Origin: a virus
Reading direction: 5' to 3' (one strand)
DNA: 64,000 nt
IMG/VR virus record: IMGVR_UViG_3300028840_004475
Span: 83,748 to 147,747 of that record
The notes under the pieces were generated by a model. It ran no database searches and was not told the origin of the DNA. It saw nothing but the letters and a program-made list of their open reading frames with translations. This document shows positions 29,393 to 51,711 of this stretch, piece after piece. A program made the translations under genes and the position numbers. The number at the start of each line of letters is the position of its first letter. The stretch's first letter is position 1.

Positions 29393-31126
29393 ATGCAGAC
29401 CTTCACCGAGGCAACGCGCTGGCGGAAGCCGACCAAGCGCAAGGGCAACGGCCGCAACTACGCCCAGCAGCGCCAGGTCATCCCAGGCAAGAGCCGGCTC
29501 ATGACTTCGACCTCGAGCGGCACCAAGGCCTTCAAGGTGGACGACTGGGGTCGCCTCGCCCGCTTCCTGATCCTGGGAGCAGACAAGCCGACCTTCTACG
29601 CGACGAAGCGCCAGCTGGTGCGGGACAACGCGAGGGTGGTCGAGCGCTGCATCAAGGAAGACGGTATCCGTACCGTGGACCTGATCGCGGAAGTGTCGAT
29701 TCAGGGCTCGGCGCCGAACAACGACCCGGCCCTGTTTGCGCTGGCAATGTGCGCGACCCTGGGTGGCCTCCACACCCGCCAGTACGCCCTCGGGCGCCTG
29801 TCGGACGTGGCGCGGATCGGAACGCACCTGTTCCACTTCGTGGCCTACTGCGAGGGTCTCGGTCACGGCTGGGGCCGGAACATGCGACGTGCGATCCGTG
29901 GGTGGTACAACGAGAAGGCGCCGGACAAGCTGGCGTATCAGATCCTGAAGTACAAGCAGCGTGACGGCTGGTCGCACAAGGATCTGCTCGCTCTGGCTCA
30001 CCCGCGCACTTCGAACAAGGAACGTGATGCCATCTACCGGTACATCGTGGCCGGCATCGATGGTCTGGGCAAGCGTACTGTCCTGAAGCACAACGGCCGC
30101 CGGAAGGTCCGCAAGACCTACCCGGACGTGTCACGTCACCTGCCGGCGCAGATCTTCGCCGCGCACGACGTGCACAAGGTCAGCAAGCGGAAGGCCAAGC
30201 AGCTCATCGAAGAGCACCGCATGACCCATGAGATGGTGCCGAACGAGCTGAAGAACGACCCAGAGGTCTGGGAGATCATGCTCGAGACGATGCCCATCGG
30301 AGCGATGGTGCGGAACCTCGGCAAGATGACCAGCATCGGCCTCCTGGACCGGATGTCCAGGGCCTCGAAGCTGGTGATCGACCGGCTGGGCGACATGGAG
30401 CGGATCCGTCGGGCGCGTCTGCACCCGATCGAGTTCCTCAAGGCCAACCGTGTCTACGGTGCCGGCCGCGGGGACAAGGGATCGCTGTGCTGGGATCCGG
30501 TGCGCGGGATCGTCCGAGCACTGGACGACGGGTTCTACCTGGCCTTCGGCGCGATCGAGCCGAGCGGCGTGAACACTGGTCTGTTCATCGACGTCTCTGG
30601 TTCGATGGCATGGGACACCTCACGCGTGAAGTCGATGGCGAACATGACCGCACGTGAGCTGTCAGGTGCCATGGCCCTGGTGACGGCGAACGTGGAGCCG
30701 TACTGGGAGATCATCGCCTTCTCCGGCGGCTACGACTCGCTCGAGGAGATCCCGATCGAGCCCGGCATGAAGCTGGACACGGTCGTGAACAGGATGGAGC
30801 GTATGCGAGCCGGCAGCACGAACCTGTCGCTACCGTTCGAGTACGCACGTGGACGCGGTGTCCCGATCGAGACGTTTATCGTCTACACAGACAACGAGAC
30901 GAATCACTTCGGCTCGCTGCATCCGTCGGAGGCACTGCGCAGGTACCGGAAAGAGACCGGCATCGACGCGAAGCTGATCGTGGTCGGCATGGTGGCGAAC
31001 GACATCTCGATCGCTGACCCGACCGATCACGGCATGTTGGATGTAGTTGGGTTCGACACGAACGCTCCGTCAGTGATGGCGGACTTCGCGAAGGGCGCCT
31101 ACGAGATCGACGTCGAGCAGGGCTGA
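29393..31126 (+). CDS. rsr: Ro60/Rsr RNA-binding protein (TROVE + vWA)
   Basis: DDW.RL.RFLILG, ARIGTHLFHF, KYKQRDGWSHKDLL.LAHP, MP.GAM.RNLGKMT, HP, DVSGSM MIDAS motif, YTDNET, IADP.D.GMLDVVGFD. Confidence 0.96.
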   Translation: MQTFTEATRWRKPTKRKGNGRNYAQQRQVIPGKSRLMTSTSSGTKAFKVDDWGRLARFLILGADKPTFYATKRQLVRDNARVVERCIKEDGIRTVDLIAEVSIQGSAPNNDPALFALAMCATLGGLHTRQYALGRLSDVARIGTHLFHFVAYCEGLGHGWGRNMRRAIRGWYNEKAPDKLAYQILKYKQRDGWSHKDLLALAHPRTSNKERDAIYRYIVAGIDGLGKRTVLKHNGRRKVRKTYPDVSRHLPAQIFAAHDVHKVSKRKAKQLIEEHRMTHEMVPNELKNDPEVWEIMLETMPIGAMVRNLGKMTSIGLLDRMSRASKLVIDRLGDMERIRRARLHPIEFLKANRVYGAGRGDKGSLCWDPVRGIVRALDDGFYLAFGAIEPSGVNTGLFIDVSGSMAWDTSRVKSMANMTARELSGAMALVTANVEPYWEIIAFSGGYDSLEEIPIEPGMKLDTVVNRMERMRAGSTNLSLPFEYARGRGVPIETFIVYTDNETNHFGSLHPSEALRRYRKETGIDAKLIVVGMVANDISIADPTDHGMLDVVGFDTNAPSVMADFAKGAYEIDVEQG

Positions 31127-31135
31127 CACGAGTTT

Positions 31136-31196
31136 GAGGGCCGGACGGCTTGGGTTATCTTGCAACGATACCCCCCAGGCCAAACACTTTGCCCTC
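31136..31196 (+). ncRNA. Y RNA 1 (short; apical loop TTGCAAC)
   Basis: GAGGGC-C-GGA...TTT-GCCCTC bulged-C Ro-binding stem, 9 nt after the Ro60 stop. Confidence 0.8.
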
Positions 31197-31205
31197 TTCA
31201 AGTTT

Positions 31206-31324
31206 GGCTGACGTAGCGATGTGGAAGGACACATGAGAGACGGCAGTAGCCCAAGGCTAGGTGTGTGCCGCCCCGTTTAGAGGAATCCTTGGGGAGCTGG
31301 TATCAAGGCCAGTCTGCGTCAGTC
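31206..31324 (+). ncRNA. Structured RNA, partly tRNA-like, without the Ro stem
   Basis: GGCTGACGTAG pairs with CTGCGTCAGTC; internal hairpins; same AGTTT leader as the Y RNA units. Confidence 0.55.
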
Positions 31325-31341
31325 GTTCTATGGAAGGATTT

Positions 31342-31452
31342 GTGGGCCGAATGGATTGCAGGGTTATCGATGGTTCGAATCCACCTGGCGGGTCTAAACC
31401 ACCCGCTATCGCCTAGCTGGTTAAGGCACCCCTGTACCAACAACTTGCCCAC
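31342..31452 (+). ncRNA. Y RNA 2, YrlA-type (T arm - closed acceptor - D arm)
   Basis: GTGGGCCGA...TTGCCCAC; GGTTCGAATCC, TGGCGGG/CCCGCTA, GCCTAGCTGGTTAAGGC. Confidence 0.88.
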
Positions 31453-31469
31453 TTTGAATTATGGGAGTT

Positions 31470-31597
31470 GCGGGCCGTAGACTGAACGTTATCTAAGCGC
31501 GCAATTTTGCGCTTATAGCTCAGTTGGTAGAGCGCCGGGGGTAGCCTCGGAGGTCGAGGGTTCGAATCCCTAACGACGTTCTTTCAGCTTTGTCCGC
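31470..31597 (+). ncRNA. Y RNA 3 (closed acceptor - D - anticodon-arm mimic - T)
   Basis: GCGGGCCGTA...TTTGTCCGC; TAAGCGC/GCGCTTA, TAGCTCAGTTGGTAGAGC, GGGTTCGAATCCC. Confidence 0.82.
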
Positions 31598-31619
31598 GCC
31601 CTACCTATTAGAGGAGTTT

Positions 31620-31682
31620 GAGGGCCGGAAGTCTTGGGTTATCACTTCGGATGATGCTTCCCAGGACACTAACTTTGCCCTC
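31620..31682 (+). ncRNA. Y RNA 4 (short; apical TATCA-CTTCGGA-TGATG)
   Basis: GAGGGCCGGA...TTTGCCCTC. Confidence 0.8.
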
Positions 31683-31701
31683 GTTTCTATACACTGAGTT
31701 T

Positions 31702-31768
31702 GTGGGCCGGAGGCAACGGGTTACCTTTCATTTGGAGAAAACACACCCATCGCCAACAACTTGCCCAC
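31702..31768 (+). ncRNA. Y RNA 5 (short; apical TTTC-ATTTGGA-GAAA)
   Basis: GTGGGCCGGA...CTTGCCCAC. Confidence 0.8.
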
Positions 31769-31787
31769 TTCGTTTTGAGAGGAGTTT

Positions 31788-31918
31788 GCGGGCCGTACGA
31801 AATAGGTTACCAATGCAAACTGTAGGTCGCGGGTTCGAGTCCCGTCATCGGCACCATGCCGATGTAGATCAGCTGGTAGATCAACAGTGGTTACACGCCT
31901 ACTTCACTTTTTGCCCGC
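31788..31918 (+). ncRNA. Y RNA 6 (tRNA permuted at the anticodon loop; acceptor closed by ACCAT)
   Basis: GCGGGCCGTA...TTTGCCCGC; ACTGT-AGGTC-T arm-CATCGGC ACCAT GCCGATG-D arm-ACAGT. Confidence 0.87.
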
Positions 31919-31940
31919 GTTTCAAAGGACACTATGGTTT

Positions 31941-32072
31941 GAGGGCCGGACGCACGTTGGGTTATCCACTCATAATGGAGAGGTCGCAGGTTCGAATCCT
32001 GTCGTGGCTTTAGCGAGTCACGTAGCTCAGTTGGTCAGAGCGCTAAACCCCCAATGTCAACTATTTGCCCTC
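31941..32072 (+). ncRNA. Y RNA 7 (anticodon arm CAT - T - closed acceptor - D)
   Basis: GAGGGCCGGA...TTTGCCCTC; TCCA-CTCATAA-TGGA, GCAGGTTCGAATCCTGT, CGTGGCT/AGTCACG, D arm. Confidence 0.87.
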
Positions 32073-32380: not shown

Positions 32381-32577
32381 AGAAGCTGTACATCTGGTTC
32401 TGCGACAAGTGCAACTCGTTCGTACCAGCGACGTGTTGTCTGGCAACGAGCAAGAAGGCAGCATGGGACGGCGGTCAAGAACACCTGGTGAAGACGCACG
32501 ACTTGACTCACCACGCTACCGACATGGAGTTGTTCAAGGGCCGCGTCGTCATCTTGGAAGAGAAGACGAAAAAATAG
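32377..32577 (+). CDS. Small zinc-finger protein
   Basis: CDKC...H...H. Confidence 0.5.
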   Translation: MKKLYIWFCDKCNSFVPATCCLATSKKAAWDGGQEHLVKTHDLTHHATDMELFKGRVVILEEKTKK

Positions 32578-32578
32578 C

Positions 32579-32608
32579 TTGACAGATCGATAACCGATGC
32601 ATCACGAT
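32579..32608 (+). promoter_or_regulatory. sigma70-like promoter, tRNA operon 1
   Basis: TTGACA-N18-CACGAT. Confidence 0.65.
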
Positions 32609-32630
32609 GAAAACTTCGTCGGAGGATGCT

Positions 32631-32744
32631 ATGCACCGCGCAATTCAGATCACCACCATTCCCATCAAGCGCGACGGACGATTGTCCTTCCTCTGTTCCC
32701 TTTCGTCCCTATTTCTCTATTCCAATTCCGGCTGGCGACTGTAG
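32631..32744 (+). CDS. Leader peptide 1: MHRAIQITTIPIKRDGRLSFLCSLSSLFLYSNSGWRL
   Basis: GGAGG SD; 18 of the last 20 residues are L/S/F/C/Y/N/W, the amino acids of operon 1; stop is 12 nt before the first tRNA. Confidence 0.8.
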   Translation: MHRAIQITTIPIKRDGRLSFLCSLSSLFLYSNSGWRL

Positions 32745-32756
32745 ACGCATCTTTGC

Positions 32757-32840
32757 GGATCGGTAGCTGAGCTGGTTTAGCAGCGGGCTGTTAACCCGTG
32801 CCCTCGGGCTACGTGGGTTCGAGTCCCACCCGATCCGCCA
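32757..32840 (+). tRNA. tRNA-Asn(GTT), long variable arm
   Basis: Cloverleaf, loop CTGTTAA, CCA end. Confidence 0.85.
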
Positions 32841-32843
32841 TGT

Positions 32844-32912
32844 GGGCGCCAGGCTATGGCAGCCAAGCGGGCTCCAACCCCGCAGGACAGGGTTCGATTC
32901 CTTGGGCGCTCG
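32844..32912 (+). tRNA. tRNA-Trp(CCA)
   Basis: Loop CTCCAAC; CCA end not encoded. Confidence 0.8.
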
Positions 32913-32927
32913 TAGAAAGAAAAATGT

Positions 32928-33003
32928 GGACTCGTCGCTGAGTTGGTTCAGGCGCCTGGTTGAAGCCCAGGAGACGTTGGTTCGATTCCAACCGAGTCCA
33001 CCA
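32928..33003 (+). tRNA. tRNA-Phe(GAA)
   Basis: Loop TTGAAGC, CCA end. Confidence 0.9.
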
Positions 33004-33006
33004 AAC

Positions 33007-33082
33007 GCGGGCATAGCCCAACTGGTAGGAGGCGACGGTTTTAAGGTCCGTTCAGTGGTGGGTTCGAATCCCCCTGCCCGTA
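33007..33082 (+). tRNA. tRNA-Leu(TAA), short variable region
   Basis: Loop TTTAAGG. Confidence 0.8.
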
Positions 33083-33151
33083 TTCAAGGAAACGAACGAA
33101 AACTGAAATAAGGAGGTCGCCTCGAGCCCATGTTTCAAAAGATCAGCACAT

Positions 33152-33234
33152 GTCAGAGTGGCGGAATTGGTAGACGCGCAGGCCCGAGGAGCCTGTACTT
33201 CGGTGTGAGGGTTCGACTCCCTCCTCTGACACCA
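33152..33234 (+). tRNA. tRNA-Leu(GAG)
   Basis: Loop CCGAGGA, CCA end. Confidence 0.9.
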
Positions 33235-33237
33235 TGT

Positions 33238-33328
33238 GTAGCGGTGGCTGAGCGGTTGAAAGCACCAGACTGTAGATCTGGAGATCCGAAAGGGTCCAAC
33301 GGTGGTTCGAATCCATCCCGCTACACCA
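33238..33328 (+). tRNA. tRNA-Tyr(GTA)
   Basis: Loop CTGTAGA, long variable arm, CCA end. Confidence 0.9.
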
Positions 33329-33331
33329 TAT

Positions 33332-33407
33332 GCCCGTCTACCCCAATCTGGTACGAGGGGCTCGGCTCAGACCCGAGATGTTCCCGGTTCGAATCCGGGG
33401 GCGGGCA
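33332..33407 (+). tRNA. tRNA-Leu(CAG), short variable region
   Basis: Loop CTCAGAC. Confidence 0.85.
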
Positions 33408-33512
33408 AAATGAAAAGCCCCTGGCCACAGTGACCAGGGGCACCCTCGCTCCTCGGGGGAAGGACAACGAAGGTGAGCTGATCGTAGCAGGAGGCGAACA
33501 TAGTTCAAGTGT

Positions 33513-33595
33513 GCCGGGGTGGCGGAATTGGAATACGCGCTGGCCTCAAGCACCAGTGCTTCGGCATGAGGGTTCGACTCCCTCTCCCGGCACCA
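33513..33595 (+). tRNA. tRNA-Leu(CAA)
   Basis: Loop CTCAAGC, CCA end. Confidence 0.9.
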
Positions 33596-33596
33596 T

Positions 33597-33688
33597 GGAA
33601 GGTTGGCCGATGTTGGGATGGCGCCTGCTTGGAAAGCAGAGACCGGCCCGAGAGGGTCGCAGAGGTTCGATTCCTCTACCTTCCGCCA
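33597..33688 (+). tRNA. tRNA-Ser(GGA)
   Basis: Loop TTGGAAA, long variable arm, CCA end. Confidence 0.88.
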
Positions 33689-33689
33689 T

Positions 33690-33764
33690 GGGCAGTGGGT
33701 CTGTCGGGATGGATGCTGGATTGCAACCCCAGAGAAACTGGTTCGACTCCAGTACTGCCCTCCA
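33690..33764 (+). tRNA. tRNA-Cys(GCA)
   Basis: Loop TTGCAAC, U73, CCA end. Confidence 0.85.
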
Positions 33765-33795
33765 AAAAAAGAGGGGCCCTCGAGGGCCCCTCTTT
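33765..33795. terminator. Bidirectional intrinsic terminator
   Basis: A-tract-GAGGGGCCC-TCGA-GGGCCCCTC-TTT between convergent units. Confidence 0.8.
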
Positions 33796-33813
33796 AGCAG
33801 TCACCTCAGTTGA

Positions 33814-34338
33814 CTAGGCGGCTTCGAGCAGCACGAAGTAGATGTCGCCGCGGAACTCGACCCAGTCGCCGACGGAACCGGCCGTGTACGAGACGCTGAC
33901 GGCGGTTCCGTTGCACACGTGTCCCTCAGGAACCAGCACGCCACCACCGCTCTCGTCGACTGCCAGGAGTGCGCCGAGGGTCTGACCAGTGTTCAGGAGA
34001 GTCGGCTTCTGGATGCCGACGGCGCTGCAGTCGATGCCGACACCGAAGCCATCAGCGTCACCACCAACCTCGGTGGAGAGCAGACCAATGTCCATGGTCT
34101 TGGTGGCACCGGTGACCTCGGCGGCCGTCACGTCCACGTAGTATCCAAGGACGACACTCTTCAGCGGAAGGTCGACGCCGCTGTCCTGCTCGGTTCCATC
34201 GGGAGCCGCAGTGATCGGAACCCGGAGGGTCTTCGTGACTGCACCGCTCGCACTGAGATCACATTGTTCGTTGATCTCTGTGGCGGTGGCAGTGATCGAC
34301 TCCATCCACCTCTTGATAGGACGAACGATAAACCACAT
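33814..34338 (-). CDS. Virion-like beta-rich protein (possible capsid decoration)
   Basis: GAGGAGG SD before ATG at 34338; ITATATEIN motif; GC3 bias like the structural genes. Confidence 0.65.
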   Translation of the reverse strand: MWFIVRPIKRWMESITATATEINEQCDLSASGAVTKTLRVPITAAPDGTEQDSGVDLPLKSVVLGYYVDVTAAEVTGATKTMDIGLLSTEVGGDADGFGVGIDCSAVGIQKPTLLNTGQTLGALLAVDESGGGVLVPEGHVCNGTAVSVSYTAGSVGDWVEFRGDIYFVLLEAA

Positions 34339-34488
34339 ATTCAGCCTCCTCGTACCTAGCCAGGGCACGGTCTCCCACTGAACCATTCAATGGGGTTACA
34401 CCCTCGTTGGGGATTGGCTGTGCATATACTGCTACACATTGGCATTTATGTGCAACACAACTTTCTGGGAGATCAACCGAGAATTATC

Positions 34489-34518
34489 TTGACTGATCGA
34501 ATAGCGATCTCTTACGGT
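34489..34518 (+). promoter_or_regulatory. sigma70-like promoter, tRNA operon 2
   Basis: TTGACT-N18-TACGGT; spacer begins GATCGA as in the operon 1 promoter. Confidence 0.6.
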
Positions 34519-34527
34519 GAAGATCTC

Positions 34528-34650
34528 ATGTTGTACTCGTTGACCAGGAAAGCCAGACCATCCGTCGCCACAGCAGTGGCGAAGCGGACGGGCATGTGCC
34601 TGGTTATCGAGGGACAGACCCGCCATTTTCGAGATCCCAGCGCGGCGTAA
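34528..34650 (+). CDS. Leader peptide 2: MLYSLTRKARPSVATAVAKRTGMCLVIEGQTRHFRDPSAA
   Basis: ATG 9 nt after the -10 box (near-leaderless); has a codon readable by each of the 20 tRNAs in operon 2. Confidence 0.75.
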   Translation: MLYSLTRKARPSVATAVAKRTGMCLVIEGQTRHFRDPSAA

Positions 34651-34743
34651 ACTGTCCTTCAGCACTGGGAACCCGAAATCGGACAGACTCGAAAGTAACC
34701 AGGCTGGACGACAGCTGCGTCGCATCTGCTGATGCACGCCTGT

Positions 34744-34821
34744 GGGGGTGTGGCCTAGTCTGGTCTAGGGCGCCTGACTGTCGATCAGGAGACTTCGCCG
34801 GTTCGAATCCGGTCGCCCCCG
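34744..34821 (+). tRNA. tRNA-Asp(GTC)
   Basis: Loop CTGTCGA. Confidence 0.88.
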
Positions 34822-34832
34822 CTCTTTTTTGT

Positions 34833-34910
34833 GCGTCCGTAGCTGAATTGGATCAGCGCAGGTCTACGAAGCCTGGTCGTATGAGAGTTCGAGTCTCTCC
34901 GGGCGCGCCA
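34833..34910 (+). tRNA. tRNA-Arg(ACG)
   Basis: Loop CTACGAA, CCA end. Confidence 0.9.
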
Positions 34911-34923
34911 GGAGACGAAGTGT

Positions 34924-34999
34924 TGCGGTGTAGCTCAGCTGGTAGAGCGTCTGACTCTGGATCAGAAGGTCGTCGGTTCGAGACCGGCCGCCGCTGCCA
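34924..34999 (+). tRNA. tRNA-Gln(CTG)
   Basis: Loop CTCTGGA, CCA end. Confidence 0.9.
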
Positions 35000-35007
35000 T
35001 GTTTTGA

Positions 35008-35085
35008 TGCGACGTAGAGCAGTCTGGTTAGCTCAGGTGGCTCATAACCACCAGGTCGTGGGTTCAAATCCCACCGTCGCTACCA
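35008..35085 (+). tRNA. tRNA-Met(CAT), initiator-like
   Basis: Loop CTCATAA, 1:72 mismatch, GAGC/GCTC D stem. Confidence 0.88.
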
Positions 35086-35130
35086 CTTTTGAGGGCGGTG
35101 TGTCCTGGGCATTCCGCCCAGGAGACATTC

Positions 35131-35207
35131 GCTCCCGTAGCTCAGTTGGTCAGAGCGCTGGTCTGATAAACCAGAGATCGTTGGTTCAAGTCCAACCGGG
35201 AGTACCA
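35131..35207 (+). tRNA. tRNA-Ile(GAT)
   Basis: Loop CTGATAA, CCA end. Confidence 0.92.
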
Positions 35208-35211
35208 TTTT

Positions 35212-35287
35212 GCCGGGGTAGTTCAGTTGGTAGAACGCCGGTGTCACATACCGGAGGTCGCTGGTTCGAACCCAGCTCCCGGTACCA
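35212..35287 (+). tRNA. tRNA-Val(CAC)
   Basis: Loop GTCACAT, CCA end. Confidence 0.9.
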
Positions 35288-35300
35288 GATAGGTGGTTGA

Positions 35301-35374
35301 CCCCGTGTCGTCTAACTGGAAGGACGCCAGGTTTCCAACCTGGAGGTCTCGGTTCGGTTCCGAGTACGGGGTCC
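35301..35374 (+). tRNA. tRNA-Gly(TCC)
   Basis: Loop TTTCCAA, U73, CCA end. Confidence 0.88.
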
Positions 35375-35413
35375 AATTCTTGGGGTTGAAAGGGTAAGTA
35401 GAGATGAACAACT

Positions 35414-35485
35414 GGATCCGTAGCTCAGCGGTTGAGCAGCTCCCTCATAAGGAGAAGGGCGTTGGTTCAAATCCAACCGGGTCCA
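35414..35485 (+). tRNA. tRNA-Met or Ile2 (CAT)
   Basis: Loop CTCATAA. Confidence 0.85.
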
Positions 35486-35516
35486 TCAGACGAAGGCGGC
35501 GGCGGTAGCAATATGT

Positions 35517-35593
35517 GCCCACGTAGCCTAATTGGAGAGGCAACTGATTTCTACTCAGTTAATATGCGGGTTCGAGTCCTGCCGTGGGCGCCA
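35517..35593 (+). tRNA. tRNA-Arg(TCT)
   Basis: Loop TTTCTAC, CCA end. Confidence 0.9.
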
Positions 35594-35596
35594 TGT

Positions 35597-35668
35597 GCGC
35601 TCGTAGCCTAGCGGAGAGGCACTGGCCTCCGAAGCCAGACCACGTAGGTTCGAATCCTGCCGAGCGCG
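35597..35668 (+). tRNA. tRNA-Arg(CCG)
   Basis: Loop CTCCGAA. Confidence 0.88.
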
Positions 35669-35725
35669 CAAAGGAGGTTGACATCGCGAACCATCTCGTT
35701 TAATTTCAAATGAGGAGGTCCGCAA

Positions 35726-36334
35726 ATGGCCAAGAAAGAAGAACGCAAACAAGCTAGAACTATGCGCAGGGGTGGAAAGTCGATAGTACAAATTGCGAAA
35801 TTACTTGGTGTATCAAAATCAAGTGTATATTTATGGACAAAGGATTTACCTCAACCAAGAAAATTCACGAAAGAATATCGACGTAAACGAAAAGAAAAAG
35901 CTCTAGCACGTTTGAAGAAAGAAAGAGAGAAACGAGAGAAAGAAAAAGCGAATCGCAAACTATTGAGTTGCGGAGATAGATGGATCATACGAGTGCCACC
36001 TGGGTACAAAGGCAAAACATATATCGGAGGAAGATACGTTCTTCAAAGTAGATATTTGATGGAACAAAAACTTGGAAGATACCTAAAATATAACGAGTGT
36101 GTTCACCATAAAAACGGGGATAAACTGGACGATAGAATTGAGAATTTGGAATTACATACTAGGAAATTACATGGAGAGATACATGCAATTAGAAAAAGGA
36201 CTAAACTCAAATGTCCAATATGTGATGTAGAATTTGAACGCAAAAACAGTTATGTGAAAAGTCACATAAAACAAGGATACAAAGGTTTTTATTGTAGCAA
36301 AAGGTGTGCGGCCAAGAAACAAAAGGGAGTATAG
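35726..36334 (+). mobile_element. Free-standing HNH homing endonuclease
   Basis: N-terminal HTH, VHHKNGDKLDDRIENL, C-terminal Zn finger; markedly AT-rich; own TTGACA-N17-TAATTT promoter at 35678. Confidence 0.88.
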
Positions 36335-36401
36335 CTCAGCTGTTAGCAGCATTCGGCTTTTAACCGAAAGGTCGTGGGTTGGAACCCCACTGCTCCCACC
36401 A
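36325..36401 (+). tRNA. tRNA-Lys(TTT)
   Basis: Loop CTTTTAA; atypical D and T loops; CCA end. Confidence 0.85.
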
Positions 36402-36402
36402 T

Positions 36403-36479
36403 GGGTTCGTAGCTCAAGTAGGCAGAGCATCCGGTTCTTACCCGGAAGGTTGGGGGATCGTGGCCCTCCGAGCCCACCA
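36403..36479 (+). tRNA. tRNA-Lys(CTT)
   Basis: Loop TTCTTAC; T loop ATCGTGG; CCA end. Confidence 0.85.
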
Positions 36480-36645
36480 AAGGAAAGACGATGTGCCCGA
36501 AGCGAGACGAAGACATGGAATTCATGAGGCGTTCACTCGAGCGCCCGTGCGAACCATTTTTCTGGCCGAAGGATCCGGATGACCAACCGGCCTACGGCTA
36601 CGAGGAAGAGGACAGGATCGAATACGATCCACCACAAAGGAGAAA

Positions 36646-36996
36646 GTGATGTTGGTCGAGGTAGGCACAGTGAAGTACGTCGTGAACTGGAAGCACGAGC
36701 GTGAGTTCGACAGGTACGCGCTCGTCCAGGACGCACAAGTGTCCGGCGATGCAAAGTTGCTACGAGCGCTGGAGCTGTCCACAGGGCGTACCATCTGTCG
36801 CATCGAGAAGCTTGGTGGTACGTCAGAGGTCGAAGCAACGGTGTACTGCTCGAAGAAGGACATCTTCGAGAAGGACGAGGGTCGGAAGAGATCCCTCAAG
36901 AGGGCACTCGCGTTGCGTGGCTTCATGAAGCAGGAGAGAACGCTCTTCTGGGACGAGTACCACAACCGGAAGCCTCAGACGGCAGAGGCTGCGTAG
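36646..36996 (+). CDS. Hypothetical phage protein
   Basis: CS.KD.FEK..GR..SL.RAL motif common in phage proteins. Confidence 0.6.
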   Translation: MMLVEVGTVKYVVNWKHEREFDRYALVQDAQVSGDAKLLRALELSTGRTICRIEKLGGTSEVEATVYCSKKDIFEKDEGRKRSLKRALALRGFMKQERTLFWDEYHNRKPQTAEAA

Positions 36997-37008
36997 GAGT
37001 GAGCACGA

Positions 37009-37084
37009 CCGCGTATAGTTCAGTTGGTAGAATGCAACCTTGCCAAGGTTGATGTCGTGGGTTCGAACCCCACTACGCGGTCCA
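37009..37084 (+). tRNA. tRNA-Gly(GCC)
   Basis: Loop TTGCCAA, CCA end. Confidence 0.9.
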
Positions 37085-37091
37085 ATTTCGT

Positions 37092-37166
37092 GCCCGAATA
37101 GTTCAGTGGTAGAACGCTTGCTCGACACGCAAGAGGTCGTTGGTTCGATACCAACTTCGGGCACCA
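37092..37166 (+). tRNA. tRNA-Val(GAC)
   Basis: Loop TCGACAC, CCA end. Confidence 0.9.
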
Positions 37167-37226
37167 GGCCGGCTGTGGCCAAACCATTACGGTGGTTCCG
37201 GGAGCACCCGGGCAGCCGGCCCCCAT

Positions 37227-37302
37227 GCTGGGGTAGTTCAGATGGTGGAACGCGTCCTTGGTAAGGACGAGGTCGCGGGTTCGAGCCCCGCCCCTAGCTC
37301 CA
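37227..37302 (+). tRNA. tRNA-Thr(GGT)
   Basis: Loop TTGGTAA, CCA end. Confidence 0.92.
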
Positions 37303-37304
37303 AC

Positions 37305-37380
37305 GCTGGCGTAGTTCAGGAGGTAGAACAGGTCACTCGTAATGATCAGGTCGCTGGTTCAATTCCAGCCGTCAGCTCCA
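37305..37380 (+). tRNA. tRNA-Thr(CGT)
   Basis: Loop CTCGTAA, CCA end. Confidence 0.92.
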
Positions 37381-37381
37381 T

Positions 37382-37457
37382 GCTGGGTTAGCTCAGTTGG
37401 TAGAGCAGCTGATTTGTAATCAGCAGGTCGCAGGTTCGAGCCCTGTCCCCAGCTCCA
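37382..37457 (+). tRNA. tRNA-Thr(TGT)
   Basis: Loop TTTGTAA, CCA end. Confidence 0.92.
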
Positions 37458-37561
37458 GGAAGAATGATGTTGGACAAAATAGACAAGTTCGTTCGTGACT
37501 ACCTGCTATTGCCGGCGACATTCGTGTACGCGGCACTGCAGATTTGGAGGCTGTTTATTGT

Positions 37562-37638
37562 GGGGTCATAGCTCAGTTGGGAGTAGCGCCTGCCTTGCAA
37601 GCAGGAGGTCGTCGGTTCGATCCCGTCTGACTCCACCA
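37562..37638 (+). tRNA. tRNA-Ala(TGC)
   Basis: Loop CTTGCAA, G3:U70, CCA end. Confidence 0.92.
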
Positions 37639-37719
37639 GCCGACCCGCGGTGAAATGTCATTGGTGTGGCCCCGTGTCAATGACAGAAGGCAGCCTACGG
37701 GGCATTTGTAGGAGGTTCT

Positions 37720-37795
37720 GTTCCCGTCGTCTAGCGGTCTAGGATCTCGGCCTCTCACGCCGAGGACGCGGGTTCGAGTCCCGCCGGGAACACCA
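37720..37795 (+). tRNA. tRNA-Glu(CTC)
   Basis: Loop CTCTCAC, CCA end. Confidence 0.92.
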
Positions 37796-37871
37796 GGCCG
37801 AACCACAGGGCCGAGGCAATCGTTTGATGTGGTGACAGCCCGGAGAGACGGGCACTGTGGGCGTGTGCTGT

Positions 37872-37944
37872 GGCGTGTGTAGCTCAGTGGTAGAGCGTAC
37901 GGCTGTGGCCCGTACTGTCGCGGGTTCGATTCCCGTCATACGCC
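37872..37944 (+). tRNA. tRNA-His(GTG)
   Basis: Loop CTGTGGC, G-1:C73. Confidence 0.9.
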
Positions 37945-37955
37945 CACCTTTTTTG

Positions 37956-37983
37956 TTGACGACCTGCAAAAGATCTCGATAAT
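37956..37983 (+). promoter_or_regulatory. sigma70-like promoter, tRNA operon 3
   Basis: TTGACG-N16-GATAAT after a T-tract. Confidence 0.6.
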
Positions 37984-38003
37984 AGATCATGCAGGAGGAA
38001 GTT

Positions 38004-38120
38004 ATGTTCCGCTACACGATGGCAGCCATTTTCTTCATCGACCATTTCAACGCCGGTCATCTGCCGTCGCCATCCTCACCCTCGCCATCAGAACGACCCT
38101 CGAGTCCGCCGCAACGCTAA
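38004..38120 (+). CDS. Leader peptide 3: MFRYTMAAIFFIDHFNAGHLPSPSSPSPSERPSSPPQR
   Basis: AGGAGG SD; 16 of the last 18 residues are P/S/E/Q, matching the downstream tRNAs; stop is 8 nt before the first tRNA. Confidence 0.82.
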   Translation: MFRYTMAAIFFIDHFNAGHLPSPSSPSPSERPSSPPQR

Positions 38121-38128
38121 CACGCTTT

Positions 38129-38218
38129 GGTGCGATGGCCTAACTGGTAGGGAAGCGGTTTGCTAAACCGTCCGGGCGTTCACGCGTTCTGAAGGTTCGA
38201 GTCCTTCTCGCACCGCCA
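38129..38218 (+). tRNA. tRNA-Ser(GCT)
   Basis: Loop TTGCTAA, long variable arm, CCA end. Confidence 0.9.
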
Positions 38219-38221
38219 TAT

Positions 38222-38297
38222 CGGAGAGTGGGGTATACGGTAGCCCACCTGTTTCGGGGACAGGATGATGTCGGTTCGAGTCCGGCCTCTCCGACCA
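38222..38297 (+). tRNA. tRNA-Pro(CGG)
   Basis: Loop TTCGGGG, CCA end. Confidence 0.9.
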
Positions 38298-38375
38298 CGG
38301 GGTATAGCTCAGTTTGCGTAGAGCGTTTGGTTTGGGACCAAAAAGCCGGGGGTTCGAATCCCTCTACCCCGACCA
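38298..38375 (+). tRNA. tRNA-Pro(TGG)
   Basis: Loop TTTGGGA, CCA end. Confidence 0.9.
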
Positions 38376-38376
38376 T

Positions 38377-38469
38377 GGATGGACAAGCCGATGGTTGGCG
38401 ACGGCACCTGCCTCGAAAGCAGGCGAACCCGAAAGGGCCTTGGGGGTTCGATCCCCTCTCCATCCGCCA
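38377..38469 (+). tRNA. tRNA-Ser(CGA)
   Basis: Loop CTCGAAA, long variable arm, CCA end. Confidence 0.88.
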
Positions 38470-38472
38470 TTT

Positions 38473-38550
38473 GGGACGTGACTCTGTCAGACACGCAGGC
38501 AGAGGGGTAGAGAAGTCGTGCTCTCCCGGTTCGAGTCCGGCGCGTCCCCA
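38473..38550 (+). ncRNA. tRNA-like RNA (acceptor and T arm intact, D and anticodon arms replaced)
   Basis: GGGACGT/GCGTCCC, CCGGTTCGAGTCCGG, two non-canonical hairpins. Confidence 0.6.
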
Positions 38551-38551
38551 C

Positions 38552-38642
38552 GGAAGGCTGGCAGAATGGCTATTGCACCTGATTTGAAATCAGAGGTCGG
38601 CCTGAGAGGGTCGTGCGGGTTCGAGTCCTGCGCCTTCCGCCA
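38552..38642 (+). tRNA. tRNA-Ser(TGA)
   Basis: Loop TTTGAAA, long variable arm, CCA end. Confidence 0.9.
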
Positions 38643-38733
38643 ATTTTTAATGCAAAAATAGTCGCTGTACAACGTAGCTATTTATGATATCAAAAAAGAT
38701 CTGTACGCCAACACCAAACAAACGAGGAAACAG

Positions 38734-39009
38734 ATGACTGGCATCCAGATCGACGTCAACTACAAGACCAGAGGCCGCAACAAGGCCGCCACCTTCACTG
38801 CGGCATACCGCAACAGAGTCGTGCCGGCTGACGTCACTGTCCCAATCCGTAGGGGACGACCGACCTACACCCTGACGATTCCGACGCCGGTCAACATCGG
38901 CAATGGTGACACACTTTCGTTCACCATGAAGAATCTGGACGCCGCACTGGCTGCTCTAGCAGACTATGCGAAGAAGTGGCCGGCGCTCAACAAGGCCGGT
39001 ATGGCCTAG
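38734..39009 (+). CDS. Hypothetical protein
   Basis: GAGG SD, clean ORF. Confidence 0.55.
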   Translation: MTGIQIDVNYKTRGRNKAATFTAAYRNRVVPADVTVPIRRGRPTYTLTIPTPVNIGNGDTLSFTMKNLDAALAALADYAKKWPALNKAGMA

Positions 39010-39027
39010 AACAGAAGAGGAGATAAG

Positions 39028-39309
39028 ATGGCTGCGAAGGCAATGACGAAGACAGAGATCTGCAAGAAGCTGGCAGAAGCCAACGACATGAAACCGAAGG
39101 AGGCAAAGCTCTTCCTCGAATCGCTGGCACAGCTGGCCTACAAGGAGGCGAAGAACGGCTTCACCATCCCTGGCATCGGCAAGCTCGTCAAGCAGCGCCG
39201 TAAGGCGCGTGACGGTCGCAACCCGGCCACCGGTGAGAAGATCCGCATCAAGGCCAAGACCGTCCTGAAGTTCAGGGTCTCGAAGGTCGCGAAGGACGCG
39301 ATTCTGTAG
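39028..39309 (+). CDS. hup: HU family DNA-binding protein
   Basis: MTKTEI...IPGIGK...RKARDGRNPATGEKIRIKAK.V.KFR. Confidence 0.93.
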   Translation: MAAKAMTKTEICKKLAEANDMKPKEAKLFLESLAQLAYKEAKNGFTIPGIGKLVKQRRKARDGRNPATGEKIRIKAKTVLKFRVSKVAKDAIL

Positions 39310-39316
39310 CAATACA

Positions 39317-39390
39317 GCTCCTGTCGTTCAATGGTAGGACGCCGGGTTTTCAACCCGGTAACCGGGGATCAATACCCCGCAGGAGCACCA
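39317..39390 (+). tRNA. tRNA-Glu(TTC)
   Basis: Loop TTTTCAA, CCA end. Confidence 0.88.
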
Positions 39391-39415
39391 ACCTTGCCGC
39401 CTTCGGGCGGCTTTT

Positions 39416-39490
39416 GGGGGCATCGTCCAATGGCTAGGACATCGGCCTTTGGAGCCGGCGATGAGGGTTCGAGTCCCTCTGCCCCTTCCA
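39416..39490 (+). tRNA. tRNA-Gln(TTG)
   Basis: Loop CTTTGGA, CCA end. Confidence 0.9.
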
Positions 39491-39746
39491 CAGCACCGCG
39501 TCATGAGACAACTATATGTGTCTCGAGCGAATTCGGTATCAAACGAGGAATGTGGGTCAAGATCGATTATGACTGGTCACCGACCTTCAAGTTCCTCGGT
39601 CACGAATTCAAGTTCCAATGGCCAGTACAGTTTAAGCCATTCAGGTTCGCTCCGTACTTGCTAATCAGACGTATCAGCAAGTATCGTGGTCTCTTCCAAG
39701 TGGCTTCGGTGATAGACAGTACCACAGTCACTTTGTCGGAGTAATC

Positions 39747-49587: not shown

Positions 49588-49887
49588 TCAGGCTGCCTCG
49601 GCTTCCTCGAGCAGGAAGTGCTGCCAAGCATCCGAGATCAACTTCTCCTGATCCTCCATGGTAACTGGGTAGATCTCCACCCCGCTTTCGGTCACGGGGC
49701 CCACGATCATCCTCTTCTTCGTCATGTGCAACTTACCCCGCAAATGGCTGCGCAATGCGTACAGCACAGTGCAGCCATACACCCTGTTGTCGTAGCTCTG
49801 GGCGCTCTTCGGAGCCGCAGCCAGCACCAGTTGCTTCGACTGCAGGTACGGCACCTCTCCCTTCAGCGCCTGTTTCAACTTCTCCAT
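49588..49887 (-). CDS. Hypothetical protein
   Basis: SD present; clean ORF. Confidence 0.45.
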   Translation of the reverse strand: MEKLKQALKGEVPYLQSKQLVLAAAPKSAQSYDNRVYGCTVLYALRSHLRGKLHMTKKRMIVGPVTESGVEIYPVTMEDQEKLISDAWQHFLLEEAEAA

Positions 49888-50270
49888 GTCGATTCTTCCC
49901 TCGAGCATCGCATACCTCAGCGGAGGAGGTTGTACCGCGAGAAGTGCCTCCGCACTTCTTCTCGTGGCCGGGGATGGATCCCGATGGCTGTGGCTTCGTC
50001 GTCCATGTCCGGCTCGCGGATCAGGACGTGATCAATCTGATGGAAGGTCAGCTTGTCGTGGAGCTTGAGGAGATCGGCCTCTCGGCCGACGCCAAGAACG
50101 ACTGCGTACGTCCCCGGTGGAGCCGGGGTCTGCTCTGCTGCATGTACGAGTTGGGCGGCCTGCGCGCCTCGTGGAAGATCGTCACGGACTACGCAGTAGT
50201 GATAGAGCGGCTGGCTGTCATGGCTTCATGATGCACCTCTGACCCTATGGTAACCGCCTGACAGGTGGTG

Positions 50271-50854: not shown

Positions 50855-50930
50855 CACCCGCGGTGGGACTCGAACCCACGACCTCCCAGGTCCATAGGCT
50901 GGGCACTCTACCGAACTGAGCTACGCGGGT
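50855..50930 (-). tRNA. tRNA-like element with 9-nt anticodon loop CCTATGGAC (copy A)
   Basis: ACCCGCG/CGCGGGT acceptor, canonical D arm, CCCAG/CTGGG, GTGGGTTCGAGTCCCAC. Confidence 0.8.
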
Positions 50931-51621: not shown

Positions 51622-51635
51622 ACTCTCTCCTGTTG

Positions 51636-51711
51636 CGCCCGCGGCGGGACTCGAACCCGCGACCTCCAAGGTCCATAGGCTTGGCACTCTACCTTGCTGA
51701 GCTACGCGGGC
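51636..51711 (-). tRNA. tRNA-like element with 9-nt anticodon loop CCTATGGAC (copy B)
   Basis: GCCCGCG/CGCGGGC, CCAAG/CTTGG, GCGGGTTCGAGTCCCGC. Confidence 0.8.

Follow-up and report, generated by a model that had tools for sequence, protein, structure and literature searches.

The window analysed here is a stretch of 64,000 nucleotides from IMG/VR virus record IMGVR_UViG_3300028840_004475, and it forms the final 64 kb of a single virus contig (147,747 bp, 56.5% G+C) that encodes a Mu-type portal and a T4-type large terminase. Our subject is a short open reading frame (ORF) within it, Leader 2, which stands at the head of the middle block of a phage tRNA array and carries a codon for every anticodon that this block supplies. 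Using ARAGORN, we identified 37 tRNA genes on the + strand between positions 32757 and 39490 of the window; Rfam supports 35 of these, all 20 in the middle block among them. The array is divided into blocks of 10, 20, and 7 tRNAs, each headed by a promoter-like site and a short ORF. The three ORFs (Leaders 1, 2, and 3) start at 32631, 34528, and 38004 and are 37, 40, and 38 codons long, respectively. The blocks hold 10, 19, and 7 distinct anticodons (36 in total), and the phage tRNAs together can read 54 of the 61 codons. The parts of the array that matter most for what follows are these:

32579-32744, + strand: Leader 1 module, with promoter TTGACA (32579), Shine-Dalgarno (SD) sequence GGAGGA, ATG at 32631, and 37 codons
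34489-34518, + strand: predicted promoter of operon 2 (the middle block), with -35 TTGACT (34489-34494), an 18-nt spacer, and -10 TACGGT (34513-34518)
34528-34650, + strand: Leader 2 ORF, ATG to TAA, 40 sense codons, 34 distinct
34744-37945, + strand: operon 2, 20 tRNA genes (ARAGORN and Rfam), in the order Asp, Arg-ACG, Gln-CTG, Met (initiator-like), Ile, Val-CAC, Gly-TCC, Met, Arg-TCT, Arg-CCG, then Lys-TTT, Lys-CTT, Gly-GCC, Val-GAC, Thr-GGT, Thr-CGT, Thr-TGT, Ala-TGC, Glu-CTC, His-GTG; the operon closes at T6 (37949-37954)
37956-38120, + strand: Leader 3 module, with promoter TTGACG-N16-GATAAT (37956-37983), SD AGGAGG, ATG at 38004, and 38 codons

Codon content of Leader 2

The Leader 2 frame, which translates as MLYSLTRKARPSVATAVAKRTGMCLVIEGQTRHFRDPSAA followed by the stop, contains a readable codon for all 19 distinct anticodons of operon 2 (20 genes, with CAT present twice). 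An exact Watson-Crick codon matches 16 of the 19, and the other three are matched by wobble (GAT for Asp-GTC, CAT for His-GTG, and CGC/CGA for Arg-ACG). A sequence-only reading of the window had drawn attention to this frame, giving its coordinates and codon content as we found them when the frame was reread, and had claimed that it covers all 20 tRNAs of operon 2, which the 20 genes called by ARAGORN and Rfam bear out. No codon among positions 2-5 is readable by operon 2 tRNAs; within codons 6-36, every one of the 19 anticodons finds one or two matches. GAA and CAA do not occur in Leader 2; both occur in Leader 3, ahead of the Glu-TTC and Gln-TTG tRNAs, again in agreement with the earlier reading, which had placed these tRNAs in operon 3. 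That reading had also described AGA, ACA, and AAA as uncommon in a GC-rich genome. This proved incorrect, as 56.5% G+C is only moderate and these codons are used at 8.5-11 per thousand.

The description of Leader 2 as a nearly non-redundant codon catalogue of operon 2 needs a qualification. With 34 of its 40 codons distinct there is indeed little repetition, but 13 of the 40 are not readable by operon 2 tRNAs, and the ORF also covers seven of the 10 anticodons of operon 1 and six of the seven of operon 3 (13 of the 17 others, and 32 of 36 overall). Leader 2 is a broad catalogue rather than an exclusive one. Since it is non-exclusive and 13 of its 40 codons lie outside the block, the signal has to be sought in the evenness and completeness of coverage and not in enrichment. 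A random subset of 19 of the 36 anticodons is wholly covered by Leader 2 with p ~0.04.

The observation itself is confirmed and is statistically unusual. Full coverage was rare (P(19/19) = 4.7e-4) in 2,000,000 simulated 40-codon ORFs that drew on the phage's own codon usage, taken from 114 long ORFs, as were ORFs with at least 34 distinct codons (P = 2.5e-3). The sequence-only reading had proposed this simulation and would have taken common full coverage as a refutation; that outcome did not occur. The 147,747-bp genome, read in all six frames, yields 118,523 windows of 40 codons free of stops. Of these, 12 reach 19/19, and they lie at two loci only: eight overlap Leader 2 and four fall in a 106-codon ORF on the minus strand (49588-49908). 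When Leader 2 is shuffled with its dinucleotide composition kept, 0.34% of the stop-free products reach 19/19, or 0.2% if the share of operon 2 codons must match too. The remaining five frames at the locus cover 9-16 of the 19. After allowing for the handful of candidate frames in the intergenic region of ~400 nt, the corrected probability is ~2e-3. As expected of an attenuator, then, Leader 2 carries regulatory codons cognate to the supply from its operon beyond chance. A further relation, in which codon order would mirror tRNA order, was considered and rejected: rho is -0.07 for Leader 2, and the best case, that of the relative G001 introduced below, is not significant (p = 0.06).

Three leaders and a distant relative

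The same match between codons and tRNAs is found at both sister leaders. Leader 1 stops 12 nt before tRNA-Asn, and its final 20 codons, LSFLCSLSSLFLYSNSGWRL, cover all 10 operon 1 tRNAs; Leader 3 stops 8 nt before tRNA-Ser, and its final 18 codons, PSPSSPSPSERPSSPPQR, cover all seven operon 3 tRNAs, including Glu-TTC and Gln-TTG, which lie past an HU gene. Nearly all codons of these two tails belong to their own block (p = 1.4e-3 and 3.9e-3 against shuffles of their own composition), and each of the three leaders opens with a stretch that lacks own-block codons (p = 0.015, 0.027, and 0.033). When the leaders are set against the blocks in a coverage matrix, the diagonal is complete (10/10, 19/19, and 7/7), and none of the off-diagonal cells is full. 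Random partitions of the 36 anticodons into sets of 10, 19, and 7 left all three leaders with full coverage in only 20 of 2,000,000 trials (1e-5); the test is clean because the block boundaries are fixed by the promoter-ORF modules and not by codon content. Synonymous choice also tracks the local isoacceptors, with GAG/CAG in Leader 2 versus GAA/CAA in Leader 3. For serine, TCC is used in Leader 1, whose block has Ser-GGA, versus TCG, TCA, and AGT in Leader 3, whose block has Ser-CGA, Ser-TGA, and Ser-GCT (Fisher p = 0.025).

An identical copy of the phage is contained in an ENA metagenome assembly. No close relative was found among GenBank phages, where the top terminase match has 32% identity. 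The closest relative in IMG/VR, here called G001, is a genome of 142,861 bp with terminal repeats, 45% G+C, 52% terminase identity, and 43 shared proteins. Its array of 23 tRNAs is ordered differently and, relative to the gene order shared with the window phage, sits at another place in the genome. At the head of this array G001 keeps a counterpart of Leader 1, with the sequence GGAGGATGCyATG, a frame of 37 codons, and a stop that falls 13 nt short of tRNA-Asn:

L050 (G001:C1:81000-98000), minus strand, ATG at L050 9615: G001 leader, before tRNA-Asn

Of the 18 tRNAs downstream, the G001 leader covers 17; of the four distinct anticodons that lie upstream it covers none. The fraction of G001 windows that reach at least 17/18 is 1.4e-3. 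Its final two codons, AAT TGG, correspond to the first two tRNAs (Asn, Trp), and it carries TTA, TTG, CTG, and CTT for five Leu tRNAs and four codon classes for four Ser tRNAs. The Leader 1 peptides of the window phage and G001 have the same length and codon logic and little shared sequence. Because the G001 leader covers its own, differing tRNA set, leader content follows array content in two divergent phages.

G001 lacks a counterpart of Leader 2; its few block-2-type tRNAs (Arg, Met, Lys, Val-AAC) lie behind ordinary genes, and no leader-like ORF was found at the other G001 tRNA clusters (Glu-Cys-Ser, Arg-Arg, Met-Lys, Val, and Met). The only copies of Leader 2 returned by an exact-protein look-up are 100% identical and come from the same phage. 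IMG/VR loci reached through four anchors (the decoration-like protein, Ro60, HU, and the 116-aa ORF) have no tRNA array or only 1-2 tRNAs, and a metagenome scan with the Leader 1 SD/tRNA-Asn pattern recovered only the G001-type phage. Erythrobacter phage XM05 shares a near-identical tRNA segment and has a 16-tRNA array, with no obvious codon-matched ORF upstream of it. Two metagenome-assembled genomes (MAGs) that hold the closest HU homologues were rejected as phage relatives, as they have no match to the phage terminase.

The sequence-only reading had taken Leader 2 for a leader, a view now backed by the three-module context, the tracking of local isoacceptors, and the repetition of the Leader 1 design in a distant relative. 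The codon-matched leader reading is supported, and rests mainly on the three-leader system and the G001 replicate. We consider it probable that Leader 2 is translated as a leader, gauging decoding capacity and gating the middle tRNA operon. Several observations weigh against this. Exclusivity is low, as described above, and the 27 of 40 Leader 2 codons read by operon 2 tRNAs place it in the top 5%-20% only. Its ATG has no SD, unlike those of Leaders 1 and 3, so that translation would depend on the predicted transcription start ~3 nt upstream. Moreover, no Leader 2 homologue was found by protein look-up, metagenome scan, or distant blastn against GenBank phages.

The same features can be read in favour of chance combined with post hoc choice, with Leader 2 as untranslated intergenic DNA that happens to be open and codon-diverse, and only Leaders 1 and 3 as real. 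A frame of that kind would be expected to lack an SD and homologues and to go uncalled, as Leader 2 did, by the gene callers of the public contig; its coverage of 32 of 36 anticodons and its operon 2 specificity of p ~0.04 would fit too, as would the further genome locus with 19/19. Yet each single test puts the probability at 1e-4 to 5e-4, with only a handful of candidate frames available in the intergenic region of ~400 nt, and the five other frames there reach only 9-16 of 19. Leader 2 is also placed exactly as its sister leaders are, directly after a paralogous promoter, and the three-way partition test gives 1e-5. We regard chance as an improbable explanation.

Promoter, RNA folds, and a possible terminator

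The Leader 2 ORF lies between a predicted promoter and tRNA-Asp on the same strand, as an attenuator should. The geometry of this promoter places the transcription start near 34525, 3 nt before the ATG. The promoter scores under the cut-off of a consensus scan, and it aligns over ~50 nt with the Leader 1 promoter (TTGACA-N18-CACGAT), making the two paralogous. The 13-nt segment that bears the SD in Leaders 1 and 3 is missing from the Leader 2 promoter region, and for this reason the ATG falls ~3 nt past the predicted start; we infer that Leader 2 is translated from a near-leaderless AUG. A GGTGA lies 7 nt upstream of the ATG and sits inside or before the -10. Two other frames were rejected as genes: an 86-aa extension (34390-34650), which has no SD, is uncalled in the public contig, and has the promoter within its frame, and an antisense 101-aa ORF, which likewise has no SD and is uncalled in that contig. 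The Leader 1 and 2 promoters (32579-32615 and 34489-34525, + strand) share TTGACwGATCGA...CGAT...yACGrTGAAr with several GATC sites and, judging from these motifs, may form a phage-specific promoter or operator class.

The three leader RNAs are of two kinds. Nowhere in the region is the C>G bias stronger than in Leaders 1 and 3 (C 35%-39%, G 18%), which fold weakly, at -0.20 kcal/mol per nt. They have the C>G bias and weak structure of a rut region (~60-90 nt), and Leader 2 does not. Such a composition is expected for Rho loading sites (PMC12360218). Further, neither Leader 1 nor Leader 3 has a terminator of the Leader 2 kind ahead of the first tRNA, and their sequences suggest that both are under Rho-dependent control. 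Leader 2 RNA is strongly folded (-0.40 kcal/mol per nt; z = -2.9 and -3.5 versus shuffles), and its C/G ratio is 0.92. In the array, tRNAs for G-poor codons follow the two rut-like leaders, and those for G-rich codons follow the structured Leader 2 (p = 0.04).

A web of inverted repeats joins the Leader 2 ORF, the spacer, and tRNA-Asp. The elements involved are as follows:

34536-34572, + strand: segment A (inverted repeats I4 and I2; constrained folds)
34598-34611, + strand: segment B, codons 24-28 (inverted repeats I4 and I6)
34651-34743, + strand: structured spacer of 93 nt, from the stop codon to tRNA-Asp (folds)
34744-34830, + strand: tRNA-Asp(GTC) with its T tract, the first gene of operon 2 (ARAGORN, Rfam, folds)

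Segment A is predicted to pair with segment B (helix 34536-34548 / 34599-34611) or, as an alternative, with the 5' acceptor strand and D arm of tRNA-Asp (34555-34572 / 34749-34766), and the leader/tRNA-Asp duplex, at -28 kcal/mol, is the strongest among the 37 tRNAs. Segment B also has a perfect 9-nt match to 34696-34704. The spacer holds a hairpin (34717-34739) whose 5' arm can alternatively pair with the last leader codons (34638-34649); this hairpin has no U tract and was rejected as a canonical terminator, and no simple hairpin-plus-U terminator was found between the Leader 2 ORF and tRNA-Asp. In silico, then, there are two sets of mutually exclusive helices: A:B versus A with the 5' half of tRNA-Asp, and the ORF end versus hairpin 34717-34739. 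An Rfam scan of 34300-34800 (E <= 1) returned tRNA only, and no T-box or other family.

The gene for tRNA-Asp has no encoded CCA, and TTTTTT (34825-34830) starts 2 nt beyond its end. The acceptor stem can be extended to 9 bp (34742-34750 / 34814-34822), is then directly followed by UCUUUUUU, and in this extended form is the only stem ahead of the T6 after tRNA-Asp. There are five runs of T>=5 on the + strand of 32400-39700, three of which sit 1-3 nt after a tRNA (Asp, His, and Ser-TGA); the run after His coincides with the end of operon 2, and that after Ser-TGA with the end of the first part of operon 3. In constrained folding, the tRNA-Asp acceptor stem has a probability of 0.91 when the RNA is ribosome-free and of at least 0.93 when a ribosome sits at codons 33-38; a ribosome at codons 22-31, a pause that masks segment B, lowers it to ~0.

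These elements could be combined as follows. Leader 2 would sample each downstream tRNA species about once, and the transit time of a ribosome over it would report a shortage in any of those decoding capacities. Transit time would in turn set, in cis, transcription into the 20-tRNA block; slow decoding would presumably lead to more tRNA and fast decoding to shut-off. The tRNA-Asp acceptor stem with UCUUUUUU would act as an intrinsic terminator, and segment A, normally held by segment B, could sequester the 5' half of tRNA-Asp. A ribosome paused at about codons 22-31 would mask B, free A, and block the acceptor stem, giving read-through. This output wiring, with tRNA-Asp as terminator, segment A as antiterminator, and segment B as control, is modelled from folds, and we put it forward tentatively. 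The folds also hold results that do not favour it. Modelled pauses at codons 6-16 give no read-through and therefore fit poorly with a sensor that counts all 19 anticodons. The leader/tRNA-Asp duplex only marginally beats shuffles (p = 0.07), and there is the second alternative pairing, that of the ORF end with hairpin 34717-34739. The wiring would also require a tRNA body to serve as the "loop" of an intrinsic terminator.

It is conceivable, if rather doubtful, that the whole array, a nearly complete tRNA set, consists of three self-regulating tRNA units with translated decoding meters, and that in unit 2 tRNA-Asp and its U6 form an attenuator, unfolded by an anti-tRNA segment of the leader whenever a ribosome dwells on codons that operon 2 tRNAs read. 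If this were true, the sorting of tRNAs among the units would follow from what each kind of leader RNA can encode, and the phage could answer depletion or cleavage of host tRNAs species by species.

The strong predicted fold of Leader 2, its many inverted repeats, and the partial pairing of the 5' AUG in the minimum-energy fold are also what one would expect of a structured, untranslated 5' leader RNA, that is, a processing, stability, or protein-binding element for the tRNA precursor, with the ORF as a by-product. Such an element would leave the coverage of 19 anticodons in one frame unexplained, as dinucleotide shuffles reach it in 0.3% of cases; no Rfam family matches, and the sister leaders show the same codon match although they are weakly structured. 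We consider this unlikely. Least likely of all is that Leader 2 is translated without being a sensor, its translation shielding the tRNA precursor from Rho or nucleases or its 40-aa peptide acting in trans, with a codon content that comes from reliance on the phage's own tRNAs: transcripts are known to be protected from Rho by coupled translation (PMC12360218) and the C>G bias of the region peaks in Leaders 1 and 3, but the Leader 1 peptides of the window phage and G001 share little sequence, which argues against action in trans, and own-tRNA use does not predict a match to the block directly downstream, because the phage tRNAs read 54 of 61 codons.

Neighbouring features and known systems

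Several protein genes lie in or beside the array:

29393-31126, + strand: Ro60 homologue, 577 aa, with TROVE and Ro60 vWA domains (Pfam), directly upstream of the array
35726-36334, + strand: HNH endonuclease ORF with an N-terminal helix-turn-helix, inside operon 2 in the gap between Arg-CCG and Lys-TTT
36646-36996, + strand: 116-aa ORF, inside operon 2
39028-39309, + strand: HU/IHF-type DNA-binding protein, inside operon 3 in the gap between Ser-TGA and Glu-TTC

The 3' end of the HNH ORF overlaps the start of tRNA-Lys, and the ORF looks like a homing-endonuclease insertion. The nearest bacterial homologues of the array HU are in MAGs of the PVC group (Victivallales, at 75%, Phycisphaerae, and Kiritimatiellia), a similarity that gives a weak hint of a PVC-group host. 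Beside the Ro60 gene, the sequence-only reading had described tandem Y-RNA-like units (31136-32072); our confirmation covers the Ro60 protein domains only. Between operons 1 and 2, a protein of 174-190 aa is encoded on the minus strand (33814-34386); some of its homologues match Pfam PF09956, and its relatives in other phages do not adjoin tRNA genes.

As for the tRNAs, one of the two CAT tRNAs in operon 2 (35008-35085, + strand) has a U1:U72 mismatch at the top of the acceptor stem and A11:U24, and the other is of the elongator type. From these features the former appears to be an initiator, so that the phage would encode its own initiator tRNA in operon 2. Leader 2 has no ATA, the codon that would be required if the second CAT tRNA were tRNA-Ile2. 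The tRNA-Asn gene (32757-32840, + strand) is 84 nt long and has an insertion of ~8 nt in the variable region compared with its G001 homologue, which is unusual for tRNA-Asn. Far from the array, ARAGORN called two "tRNA-His" genes with the unusual anticodon ATG (50855-50930 and 51635-51711, minus strand), which may not be ordinary tRNAs but tRNA-like elements.

Phage tRNA arrays are usually viewed as a help with codon usage, or as a substitute for host tRNAs that are lost in the course of infection or through anticodon nucleases, and little has, to our knowledge, been established about the control of their expression. A leader with one codon per tRNA would be a direct sensor of decoding capacity. 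If Leader 2 is such a sensor, trp-style attenuation would extend from amino-acid enzymes to tRNAs and from a few codons to a 19-way "weakest link" gate. It would also provide a natural part for sensing tRNA supply, and would account for large arrays being cut into blocks with their own promoters.

Ribosome-mediated leader-peptide attenuators of amino-acid operons include trpL, hisL, pheL, and leuL, as well as the multivalent thrL and ilvL. Like Leader 2, attenuators of the trpL type have a short 5' ORF whose codons report the supply of the operon's product. They also share with the arrangement proposed for Leader 2 mutually exclusive helices that depend on ribosome position, and a GC-rich stem with a U tract before the bulk of the operon. 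The differences are that trpL-type attenuators regulate enzyme genes, whereas Leader 2 would regulate tRNA genes; that they use runs of one or a few codons, whereas Leader 2 is ~19-valent with mostly one codon per tRNA; and that the Leader 2 start is near-leaderless, with the acceptor stem of the first tRNA as its predicted candidate terminator.

Upstream ORFs (uORFs) that control termination have precedents in tnaC, speFL, cruR, mgtL, and hisL (reviewed in PMC12360218). In uORF-dependent Rho attenuation (tnaC, speFL, cruR, and mgtL; PMC12360218), a rut site that is C>G and unstructured is shielded by a paused ribosome; this composition recurs in Leaders 1 and 3, which end 8-12 nt before the first tRNA, whereas Leader 2, with its C/G of 0.92 and high degree of structure, is unlike these attenuators. 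What known uORF Rho attenuators respond to is a small molecule or ion, detected by way of the nascent peptide, or one amino acid, and not a panel of tRNAs. T-box riboswitches resemble the Leader 2 proposal in reading tRNA status by codon-anticodon pairing and in controlling termination, but they do so without translation, through a single specifier codon, and their targets are synthetase, biosynthesis, or transporter genes. For a leaderless start, there is precedent in the polycysteine small ORFs of mycobacteria, which are described as leaderless first-cistron ORFs and amino-acid-responsive attenuators, as proposed for Leader 2, and differ from it in responding to one amino acid, in having protein-coding targets, and in belonging to another host group (bioRxiv 10.1101/834739).

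Full-text literature searches returned no published account in which a leader peptide controls phage tRNA genes. Among known systems, ribosome-mediated attenuation comes closest and, for Leaders 1 and 3, uORF-dependent Rho attenuation; tRNA genes as the target, a ~19-valent non-redundant sensor, a near-leaderless start, and the idea of a tRNA as terminator are all new.

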